A stretch of DNA of 42,271 nt from the IMG/VR virus record IMGVR_UViG_2718218308_000003, positions 1 to 42,271 of that record, one strand, 5' to 3'. The position numbers and the translations under genes were made by a program. The notes below the pieces were generated by a model. That model saw only the letters and a program-made list of their open reading frames with translations, searched no databases and was not told the DNA's origin. The stretch's first letter is position 1. The number at the start of each line of letters is the position of its first letter. This DNA is from a virus. Its lineage: Duplodnaviria; Heunggongvirae; Uroviricota; Caudoviricetes. Below are positions 31,107 to 32,469 of this stretch, piece by piece.

Positions 31107-31496
31107 TCAGGCGGCTGCACCCGCCGTTTTCTCGTACTTACTGATAGTGATCTCGACCTTCCCTTCCGGGATAACCGGTCCCCACTCCACCAGCATTCTT
31201 TTCACCTGACTGTCGTCTTCCCACACCCCCGCGTGGGTCAGGGCGTCAAACAGCGCCTTGTTATAGTTGTCCAGATCGCGGATCCTGTTATCCGGAGGAA
31301 ACAACACGATCTCCACTGAAGCAGGTGCCGACGTTGGTTTCGGCAGACGACGTAACTGTTCAACTATTGCTGCGCACGCCGCGCTCTGAAATTTTCGCCC
31401 CGCCGCGCTTATCAGGCTCTTACCTGCAAACGCCCCTTTGTTGGGGTGTCGCCAGTACGTGTTCACGCTGGGCGGGAAAGGCAGGATCAGCTTCAT
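31107..31496 (-). CDS. rusA: RusA-type Holliday junction resolvase
   Basis: 129-aa protein with the conserved RusA core (…RDLDNYNKALFDALT…); canonical nin-region gene. Confidence 0.85.
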   Translation of the reverse strand: MKLILPFPPSVNTYWRHPNKGAFAGKSLISAAGRKFQSAACAAIVEQLRRLPKPTSAPASVEIVLFPPDNRIRDLDNYNKALFDALTHAGVWEDDSQVKRMLVEWGPVIPEGKVEITISKYEKTAGAAA

Positions 31497-31819
31497 ACTT
31501 TCAGGCCCCTCTTATGTAACCAGTGGGTTGCACGCAGCCTGGCGTTTTCCTCACCGGCAAGCAGTGAGCGGATAATCCCGACCGCCTCGCTGTCGTCGTC
31601 CTTCACCGCGGTATGAAGCGTGATGCCCCGGGCCACGCCACGCTTTATCGTGATGACGCCTTTTTTCTCCAGTGCGCGAAGATGCTCCACCGCTGCATTC
31701 ACTGAACGGTATCCCAGCATGGTTGCCACCTCCTGATTGGTTGGCGGGAAGCCACGTTCTTTCTGATAAGAAATCAGCATATCCAGCACCTGCTGCTGGC
31801 ATTGAGTTAACGTCGTCAT
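31493..31819 (-). CDS. LexA-like DNA-binding domain protein (winged HTH only, no peptidase domain)
   Basis: 108 aa with a LexA-type N-terminal pattern (FPPTNQEVATMLGYRSVNAAVEHLRALEKKGVI); overlaps the start and stop of its neighbours. Confidence 0.5.
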   Translation of the reverse strand: MTTLTQCQQQVLDMLISYQKERGFPPTNQEVATMLGYRSVNAAVEHLRALEKKGVITIKRGVARGITLHTAVKDDDSEAVGIIRSLLAGEENARLRATHWLHKRGLKV

Positions 31820-32469
31820 GCCGCCATCTCCCTGACCAGTTTTTCTGCCTGCTGGCGAACCTGCGCCAGAAAGGCCTCACCACATGCCTCAAGTTCATCG
31901 CGCCCGATGTAGCTGATTGCCGGTCCCTTCCAGGTCTTGTCGAAAACAGCAATAGCACCAGCGAAGAAAGCGCCTGTCGGCACCTGCTTCTCATCCTTCG
32001 GGATAAACCAGGCAGGCAGTTCAAAACCAATACGCCCGCGAATAAAAGCAATATGATCTGCATCTTCCGGCCACCACACTTCGCTGGTGGCAGCTTTGAT
32101 CAGGAAAACATAGCGCCCGCCTTTATCACGCATGGCACTGGCATGCTTCATGATGTAACGCATGCCGGTGATGTATTGCCCCTCATGCTGACTGGCGCGG
32201 CTGTATGGGGGATTACCAAAGGCAGCACCTTTAAGCTCCGCAAGGCGTTCTGACCAGTCATGCGCCAGCGCGTTGTCTTCCGCCGTGTAATACGCAGCAC
32301 ATTTGGCGTTATCACCGTCAGTGAACAGATCCAGAACAAACGGGCCAAACAGGGTGTTAATTCCCCAGAAAATGTTGTCCGGCGTGCGCCACTGATCGCC
32401 CACTTCCTTCAGTTCATGGGCTGGTTTGTTCCGCAGTTCCGCCAGCGCCTGGCAATATTTATTACTCAT
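31816..32469 (-). CDS. Phage orphan DNA N6-adenine methyltransferase (Dam-like)
   Basis: Catalytic NPPY motif (FGNPPYS), no adjacent restriction gene. The start is taken at MSNKYCQ (32469), which overlaps the upstream stop in a TAATG arrangement. Confidence 0.7.
   Translation of the reverse strand: MSNKYCQALAELRNKPAHELKEVGDQWRTPDNIFWGINTLFGPFVLDLFTDGDNAKCAAYYTAEDNALAHDWSERLAELKGAAFGNPPYSRASQHEGQYITGMRYIMKHASAMRDKGGRYVFLIKAATSEVWWPEDADHIAFIRGRIGFELPAWFIPKDEKQVPTGAFFAGAIAVFDKTWKGPAISYIGRDELEACGEAFLAQVRQQAEKLVREMAA

Follow-up and report, generated by a model that had tools for sequence, protein, structure and literature searches.

A Dam-like N6-adenine methyltransferase gene (Dam) and a gene for a small LexA-like protein lie side by side in a prophage of the IMG/VR virus record IMGVR_UViG_2718218308_000003 (Caudoviricetes), whose whole analysed stretch of 42,271 nucleotides (nt) is referred to here as the window. 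Comparison with close and distant relatives establishes that the two genes are independent modules and are neighbours by chance. The conserved unit of the region is the LexA-like gene, usually RusA, and then DUF968 and the antiterminator Q, and not Dam plus the LexA-like gene. An earlier, sequence-only reading of this DNA had implied that Dam and the LexA-like protein form a functional pair, and this is the part of it that does not survive the comparison, Dam being missing from many near-identical loci and either absent or replaced in distant relatives.

Separability of the methyltransferase and LexA-like genes

The close comparison set comprised 80 IMG/VR loci in which the LexA-like gene is 97–100% identical to that of the window. 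Dam is wholly absent from 25 of them, and in these loci yfdN, the gene that precedes Dam in the window, overlaps the start of the LexA-like gene through the same TAATG. The Dam-plus and Dam-minus forms differ by an exact insertion of 654 nt, with ATGA on either side. RusA, on the other side of the LexA-like gene, is directly downstream of it in all 80 loci.

The distant homologs came from 1.84 billion cluster representatives, among which HMMER picked out short full-length homologs of 38–52% identity, and their surroundings are varied. In L005, Dam is followed by a methyltransferase of 660 amino acids (aa) belonging to PF00145, the LexA-like gene, RusA and Ant, and in L010 by the LexA-like gene, one opposite-strand gene, RusA, DUF968 and Q. 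Loci L006–L009 have no methyltransferase, their order being replication gene, LexA-like, RusA, Ant, DUF968 and Q. A 609-aa methyltransferase that matches both PF00145 and PF02086 precedes the LexA-like gene, RusA and KilA-N in L012/L013, and a 673-aa PF00145 methyltransferase and a 75-aa gene precede the LexA-like gene, RusA, DUF968 and Q in L014. The LexA-like gene is followed by a 67-aa gene, RusA, DUF968 and Q in L011, and by a 66-aa gene, RusA and DUF968 in L096, while L098 has no RusA and reads dinI, a 75-aa gene, the LexA-like gene, a 67-aa gene, DUF968 and Q. For all this variation, RusA and/or DUF968 and Q are always found downstream of the LexA-like gene at this level of identity; RusA lies no more than two genes downstream in seven of the eight informative distant gene-order types, and DUF968 is present in all informative contexts of the LexA-like gene. 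It is from these distant contexts that the conserved unit given above is drawn.

The slot just upstream of the LexA-like gene is occupied in different phages by a PF05869 Dam or by the enzymes of 609–673 aa that belong to PF00145/PF02086 (L005, L012/L013 and L014), and it behaves as a recurrent insertion point for methyltransferases.

Another way of looking at this neighbourhood is to consider Dam and the LexA-like gene as one unit, in which the helix-turn-helix (HTH) protein controls the expression of the methyltransferase, or methylation tunes the operators of the HTH protein. The ATGA overlap between the two genes, the fact that in five of nine gene-order types the LexA-like gene has a methyltransferase (from unrelated families) immediately upstream, and the existence of read-through Dam/LexA-like fusion proteins in databases can all be cited for such a unit. 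However, the near-identical loci without Dam keep both the LexA-like gene and its TAATG coupling, L006–L009 dispense with any methyltransferase, and phage HK97, whose nin region contains RusA and a PF05869 methyltransferase, has no LexA-like gene. The gene order is also the reverse of what regulation would suggest: controller (C protein) genes lie upstream of the methyltransferase gene, whereas the HTH gene sits downstream of it here. The idea of a single unit is largely refuted already by the natural Dam-minus variants, and it is regarded as very improbable. Since the methylase and the LexA-like gene are separable, natural Dam-plus/Dam-minus phage pairs exist and are available for testing the function of the methylase.

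The orphan methyltransferase

The methyltransferase scores 155.7 bits against the PF05869 Dam profile (cut-off 28.1) and 255.6 bits against the TIGR01712 equivalog (cut-off 97.05), the latter over profile positions 1–165 of 165. Its motifs FGNPPYS, DQWRTP and VLDLF align with the enzymes of T1, HP1 and HK97, so the NPPY-bearing N6-adenine methyltransferase recognised in the sequence-only reading stands. That reading had also proposed that the enzyme has no restriction partner, and here too the analysis concurs: no restriction endonuclease domain was found with Pfam or PADLOC in the approximately 25 larger open reading frames (ORFs) scanned, and Dam is gained and lost singly. PADLOC returned methyltransferase models only, with no other defence-system assignment, and the neighbours of the gene are yfdN, the LexA-like gene and RusA, in place of the partner that would make up a type II restriction-modification system. 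By its profiles and motifs, the enzyme is classified as an orphan phage N6-adenine methyltransferase of PF05869/TIGR01712.

The T1 Dam, the HP1 Dam and the nin-region enzyme of HK97 have D-x-W-x-TP, LD and NPPYS in common with the window enzyme and, like it, are small, stand-alone, early-expressed proteins without a restriction enzyme. The resemblance in overall sequence is low (24% identity to T1 Dam, 26% to HP1 Dam and 31% to the HK97 enzyme), and lengths differ, the window enzyme being 40–45 residues longer, at its C-terminal end, than those of HP1 (173 aa) and HK97 (175 aa), whereas T1 Dam (237 aa) is longer still. The T1 and HP1 Dam enzymes methylate GATC. Literature searches brought up nothing specific on the methylation motif of the window enzyme. 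As guides to that motif, M.EcoGIX was set aside as a plasmid enzyme and M.EcoMIV as a member of PF02086. No solved structure matches the methyltransferase by sequence, and an AlphaFold model made from the single sequence without an alignment reached a predicted local distance difference test (pLDDT) value of 34 and was not usable.

The naming of this family in databases is uneven. RefSeq phage records and PHROGs call the PF05869 methyltransferase a "phosphoadenosine phosphosulfate reductase", a mislabel carried by mEp460 NC_019716 (L001) at 8083–8736, NC_049941 and NC_009514; lambda NinC bears the same reductase label, and RefSeq E. coli genomes name the methyltransferase gene correctly. The label is an annotation error and appears to derive from a fusion family, because the methyltransferase matches only positions 283–492 of the 495 positions of phrog_33262. 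Many fused gene calls are also found in databases, joining yfdN with Dam, Dam with the LexA-like gene, or Dam with RusA (P0254–P0265, 380 aa; P0256/P0257, 292 aa; P0279, 347 aa), and these probably arise via stop-codon loss or frameshift at the overlapping junctions.

The LexA-like protein and its candidate operators

The LexA-like protein covers the whole PF01726 LexA_DNA_bind profile (positions 1–65 of 65; 69 bits, E 2.9e-19), ends at residue 108 and gives no match to the S24 domain (PF00717), which agrees with its earlier description as a LexA-type winged helix without S24. Against the TIGR00498 LexA equivalog it scores 70.7 bits, below the cut-off of 110.95, and it matches profile positions 1–91 only. 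It is 43% identical to residues 1–86 of E. coli LexA, and by sequence it is LexA structures that it matches best in the PDB. An AlphaFold (AF2) model built on a 16-sequence family alignment (pLDDT 81.8) shows a winged HTH at residues 1–68, a low-confidence linker at 69–74 and a tail in the form of a hairpin (75–103) made of two conserved helices, 75–87 and 93–103. The winged HTH of the model fits DNA-bound LexA (3jso) with a root mean square deviation of 0.9 Å over 68 residues (Foldseek). Because of the 43% identity and of this fit to DNA-complexed LexA, the protein is taken to be a true homolog of LexA's DNA-binding domain.

The residues of LexA that contact DNA are S39, N41, A42, E44 and E45 (PMC3091678). 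Four of these five (S39, N41, A42 and E45) are preserved in the LexA-like protein, in which position 44 is V and position 28 is N. Across the 16 aligned family members, S39 and the wing R64-G65-I66 are invariant, N41 is present in 15, E45 in 12 and A42 in 11, and neither E44 nor R28 occurs in any. E. coli LexA (TIGR00498; PDB 1lea, 3jso) therefore has S39, N41, A42, E45 and R64-G65-I66 in common with the LexA-like protein, but it also has an S24 domain, with the Ser119/Lys156 pair, RecA*-induced cleavage and the LexA-type dimer interface, all of which are lacking in the LexA-like protein, where a 35-residue helical hairpin is found instead.

The residues A88-G89 of the LexA-like protein align with the cleavage site of LexA, A84-G85. 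In homologs this position reads AN, VG, TR, DD, CS or EE; it is not conserved, and for that reason the aligned Ala-Gly was rejected as a site of cleavage in trans. As the protein has no catalytic domain and the Ala-Gly is not conserved, it cannot cleave itself, as had been suggested before. The C-terminal hairpin, in contrast to the Ala-Gly, is conserved down to 38% identity, and from the model we infer that it has taken over dimerisation from the S24 domain. In the search of cluster representatives, P0131, P0132, P0149, P0152, P0153 and others, of 140–350 aa, matched the LexA DNA-binding domain twice. Literature searches likewise brought up nothing specific on the LexA-like protein, and no experimental characterisation of it was found.

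SOS boxes were sought with a 20-nt matrix built from known boxes, on which real boxes score at least 12.7. The prophage has no SOS box of its own. The sole good match in the window, TACTGTATACTCAACCAGTC at 2358–2377 (score 17.7), lies outside the prophage, where it includes part of the stop codon of a P4-type integrase gene and adjoins an int-alpA RNA motif (RF02996); a 265-aa hypothetical gene follows downstream at a distance of about 105 nt (the coordinates listed with this element are 2264–2331, 1450–2253 and 2376–3590). In related genomes this small element goes on to an HTH gene and a gene for an AntA/AntB antirepressor, and here an insertion sequence (IS) element cuts it off.

Relatives of the prophage carry canonical SOS boxes with scores of 20–27, the best score in 200 shuffles of the window being 20.7. 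In L067, a terminator-like hairpin and then the box TACTGTATTTATGAACAGTG (4765–4784) separate RusA from the KilA-N gene; some close relatives thus have a terminator and a box before the KilA-N gene, and the window does not. Boxes precede the PF01555 methyltransferase found after Q at L014:6739 and at L001:3471 (mEp460), and the same box is present at L020:7907, at the corresponding distance downstream, in a locus that ends before the gene is visible. A box is located inside the cI gene at L021:1043 and apparently also at L001:12522 of mEp460. Finally, boxes lie 440–760 nt upstream of the LexA-like gene in L011, L014, L096 and L098. In L098 the box TACTGTTTATTTATACAGTA overlaps the -10 element of a TTGAAC-17-TATACT promoter directly before dinI, in L096 two boxes precede the gene for a RecA_C-like fragment, and the dinI, LexA-like, DUF968 arrangement recurs in L111, L143 and L158. 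The SOS-box promoter of these distant relatives reads through dinI or the gene for the RecA C-terminal fragment, and a gene of 75–82 aa, into the LexA-like gene.

Taken together, these boxes suggest that host LexA directly controls accessory genes in this group of phages. Within part of the family, the LexA-like gene is visibly under host LexA control and co-transcribed with SOS modulators, and the joint arrangement of dinI or the RecA_C-like gene with the LexA-like gene is possibly a phage SOS-modulating module. The SOS-box promoters and the linkage to dinI consequently fit an SOS-related role, and are no proof that the LexA-like protein binds the boxes, especially as the recognition helix is altered in some of these members. 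A strong box occurs within 4 kb in 26 of the 80 loci versus none in lambda or the early region of HK97, and among 80 stretches of viral DNA selected because they contain a strict SOS box, 7 carry the LexA-like gene, both counts being confounded by host and phage lineage.

The explanation preferred here assigns separate roles to the two proteins. Dam would methylate replicating phage DNA prior to packaging, most likely at GATC like the T1 and HP1 enzymes, and this methylation would make the phage DNA resistant to restriction in the next host. The LexA-like protein would be a LexA DNA-binding domain whose cleavable S24 dimerisation domain has been swapped for a short helical hairpin, through which the protein would dimerise. 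It would be made only after induction, while RecA* destroys host LexA, and, as an uncleavable stand-in, it would occupy LexA-type, CTGT-containing operators, with the result that LexA-controlled promoters would be re-repressed during lytic growth. In relatives the target promoters would be borne by the phage itself, before KilA-N, before the post-Q methyltransferase and in the dinI operon that reads into the LexA-like gene; in the window prophage, for want of an SOS box, the protein would have to act on genes of the host or of co-resident elements. Given the four retained contact residues and the canonical boxes nearby in relatives, binding of SOS boxes by the LexA-like protein is plausible. 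Its action as an uncleavable LexA stand-in on LexA-type operators in lytic growth is proposed tentatively, at clearly less than even confidence, and the explanation as a whole (operon, independent modules and the roles of Dam and the LexA-like protein) is given a chance that comes near to even but falls short of it.

Several observations tell against this explanation. GATC is present at 159 sites in the window against 165.5 expected, so it is neither avoided nor enriched, and, with only 24–31% identity to the GATC-specific enzymes, a GATC target is unproven for the window enzyme. No exact CTGT-N8-ACAG was found in the prophage, one-mismatch matches to the SOS box (18 versus 13.8 expected) are at chance level, and the best matrix score inside the prophage is 9.3. 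LexA residues E44 and R28 are replaced in the entire aligned family, and N41, A42 or E45 differ in several members, including some behind canonical boxes; with its contact residues altered, the protein may therefore have a specificity different from that of LexA, and those boxes may be there for host LexA alone. That the hairpin dimerises the protein is deduced from a monomer model only, and the SOS boxes counted near the LexA-like gene may be no more frequent than enterobacterial temperate phages ordinarily have them. To this must be added that GIL01 gp6, which among truncated phage LexA homologs is the sole one to have been characterised, recognises a different site and activates a late promoter (PMC6182141).

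The main rival to a LexA stand-in comes from that same precedent, and sees in the LexA-like protein a transcription factor specific to the phage, with an operator of its own that has no relation to SOS boxes. Such a factor would act in the manner of gp6, for instance by activating a phage promoter or setting its timing, and its resemblance to LexA would reflect ancestry only. GIL01 gp6 is a truncated homolog with 44% identity to its host LexA's DNA-binding domain; it binds the -35 element of the late promoter P3 alongside LexA, without competing with it, and activates late genes (PMC6182141). It acts at its own site and not at dinBoxes (PMC6182141), which means that a lone LexA DNA-binding domain need not be an SOS-box repressor. 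Both gp6 and the window protein are phage LexA DNA-binding domains without the cleavable domain and are encoded in an early operon (PMC6182141), and the rival is further favoured by the variation of positions 42, 44, 45 and 28 across the family, which is not expected of a true LexA ortholog, and by the lack of an SOS box in the window prophage. On the other hand, gp6 has 66 aa and no C-terminal hairpin and comes from a Gram-positive tectivirus, and it shows no sequence similarity to the LexA-like protein, BLASTP giving no alignment between the two. The late genes are under Q in this prophage, and no candidate operator was found, CTGT/ACAG palindromes with spacings of 0–20 giving scattered hits inside genes with no convincing enrichment. 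S39, N41 and the wing residues are, moreover, nearly invariant, and the closest relatives keep the SxNAAxEH helix. A gp6-like regulator is accordingly judged rather unlikely, although it must be reckoned with.

It could also be thought that the LexA-like protein is an accessory of RusA, which binds DNA, or RusA itself via the hairpin, and targets or restrains the resolution of junctions while the phage replicates and packages its DNA. The constant position of RusA next to the LexA-like gene in the close loci, usually with a 4-nt overlap, its nearness in the distant gene-order types and the translational coupling, which suggests matched amounts of the two proteins, are in line with this role. 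Nevertheless, the linkage is explicable by a conserved gene order in one phage lineage; L098, L111 and L143 have no RusA and keep the LexA-like gene followed by DUF968; HK97 has RusA and no LexA-like gene, and the same presumably holds for DLP12 and phage 82. A junction-specific factor, besides, would have no use for the reading of DNA sequence, and it is the surface with this task that is most conserved in the protein; an accessory role is considered improbable. The RusA of lambdoid phages (PF05866) belongs to the same family and has the same position, just upstream of Q, as the window RusA, but that of HK97 is preceded by Roi and an HNH gene, and that of the window and its relatives by the LexA-like gene.

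The gene block, its prophage and its significance

The genes of the chain and the regions mentioned above are given in Table 1.

Table 1. Positions of the genes of the block and of the phage repressor in the window, and of upstream regions with SOS promoters in distant relatives.
Feature	Position	Strand	Basis
O-like replication initiator (winged HTH, HTH_36), first large gene of the chain	32960–33901	-	Pfam HTH_36/DnaD_N; phrog_391, E 1e-135
yfdN, PerC-family small regulator-like protein, 164 aa	32469–32963	-	PF06069 PerC, E 4.5e-9; RefSeq name yfdN
Dam-like N6-adenine methyltransferase, 217 aa, FGNPPYS	31816–32469	-	PF05869; TIGR01712 (scores in text)
LexA-like protein, 108 aa	31493–31819	-	PF01726 (score in text)
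RusA Holliday-junction resolvase, 129 aa	31107–31496	-	PF05866, 56.4 bits (cut-off 22.8; profile positions 1–123 of 124); phrog_34, E 3e-58
KilA-N domain protein, antirepressor-like, 19 nt past RusA	30278–31087	-	PF04383, E 2.6e-22
DUF968/HNH-like protein (YdfU family)	29281–30276	-	PF06147, 268 bits
Antiterminator Q, 118 aa, end of the delayed-early chain	28922–29278	-	PF06530, E 2.4e-45
Prophage repressor, S24 peptidase domain, cI-like	35132–35806	+	PF00717, E 1.5e-26
SOS-promoter upstream region, L098	513–1518		
SOS-promoter upstream region, L096	3242–4405		
SOS-promoter upstream region, L014	3561–4357		
SOS-promoter upstream region, L011	3560–4408		

The start of the Dam-like gene is the ATG at 32469, which is the one used in RefSeq and in thousands of 217-aa homologs; the GTG at 32502 given by the ORF lister was rejected, since the homologs and RefSeq use the other start. 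The yfdN stop codon and the Dam ATG overlap as TAATG (32471..32467), the Dam stop and the LexA-like start as ATGA (31819..31816), and the LexA-like stop and the RusA start as a second ATGA (31496..31493). The overlapping gene chain with RusA that had been reported from the sequence is thereby confirmed. Each start in the chain is preceded, 5–12 nt on its 5' side, by a purine-rich run resembling a Shine-Dalgarno sequence. Overlaps between start and stop codons are common in phage operons, and the coupling at the yfdN/Dam/LexA-like/RusA junctions is therefore real and statistically unremarkable.

A promoter-site scan found no sigma-70-like promoter on the coding strand within 29300–34000. Because there is no internal promoter and an S24-type, cI-like repressor lies upstream, the chain is read as a delayed-early rightward operon that is expressed after RecA-dependent induction. 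The repressor is presumably cleavable by RecA, and, given its S24 peptidase domain, RecA dependence is expected for the induction of the chain.

The prophage is a lambdoid one of the SfV/mEp460 type, integrated at tRNA-Thr beside a proA-like gene. Its integrase (39650–40813) marks one end, with tRNA-Thr(CGT) at 40828–40903 (-) and the proA-like gene beyond, a site that we take to be the SfV-type attachment site; icd was rejected as the site of integration. An Oac-like acyltransferase gene is located at the end opposite the integrase and tRNA-Thr, and the window contains two IS transposase genes (coordinates given jointly for the acyltransferase and IS genes: 5580–6728 (+), 4376–5407 (+) and 1–876 (-)). 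A match to the STnc100 small RNA at 36491–36713 (+) scores 49.1 bits, the gathering score being 47. A low-GC (0.33–0.38) insert of two genes at 27856–28895 (+) separates Q from the lysis genes and lies on the opposite strand, with ORFs of 100 aa and of 246 aa, the latter with a hydrophobic C-terminal part; neither has a significant match in Pfam or PADLOC. In mEp460 the position of this insert is taken by a PF01555 methyltransferase.

The block itself is already known and very common, being found in about half of complete E. coli genomes. Fifty phage records match its 2 kb with 95–99% nt identity, mEp460 and the Stx2 and Stx2c converting phages among them, and the LexA-like protein is 96–99% identical in SfV, SfII, SfIV and cdtI. 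Gene order and overlaps identical to those of the window, with 97–99% nt identity over the 2 kb, are found in SfV, mEp460, cdtI, SfII and the Stx2c phages, in contrast to SfIV, 2H10 and the Dam-minus IMG/VR loci described above, which are without Dam. The same genes are annotated dam, orf42 (unknown) and orf43 in SfV and gp45, gp46 and gp47 in mEp460. Among 5426 complete E. coli genomes, the 977-nt interval of Dam and the LexA-like gene has matches in 2655 and is covered to at least 80% in 1661, and the RefSeq names of the genes in E. coli are "phage N-6-adenine-methyltransferase", "LexA family transcriptional regulator" and "RusA family...".

The finding is at present of little weight, annotations of these genes being available for thousands of E. 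coli genomes and for published phages from SfV onwards, and the uncharacterised LexA-like family is the sole part of it worth an experiment. It is conceivable, though doubtful, that this is a family of RecA-proof phage LexA surrogates, which would be made only after induction and re-occupy SOS operators once host LexA is gone. If true, such surrogates would shut LexA-controlled phage accessory genes, the host SOS regulon and the LexA-controlled antirepressors of co-resident prophages, and, with dinI or the RecA_C-like gene, they would form an SOS-dampening phage module that is genetically linked to RusA. The LexA-like protein is present in about half of complete E. coli genomes, Stx2c phages included, and re-repression of SOS promoters after induction, if it takes place, would have effects on mutagenesis, on prophage cross-talk and possibly on the induction of Stx phages.

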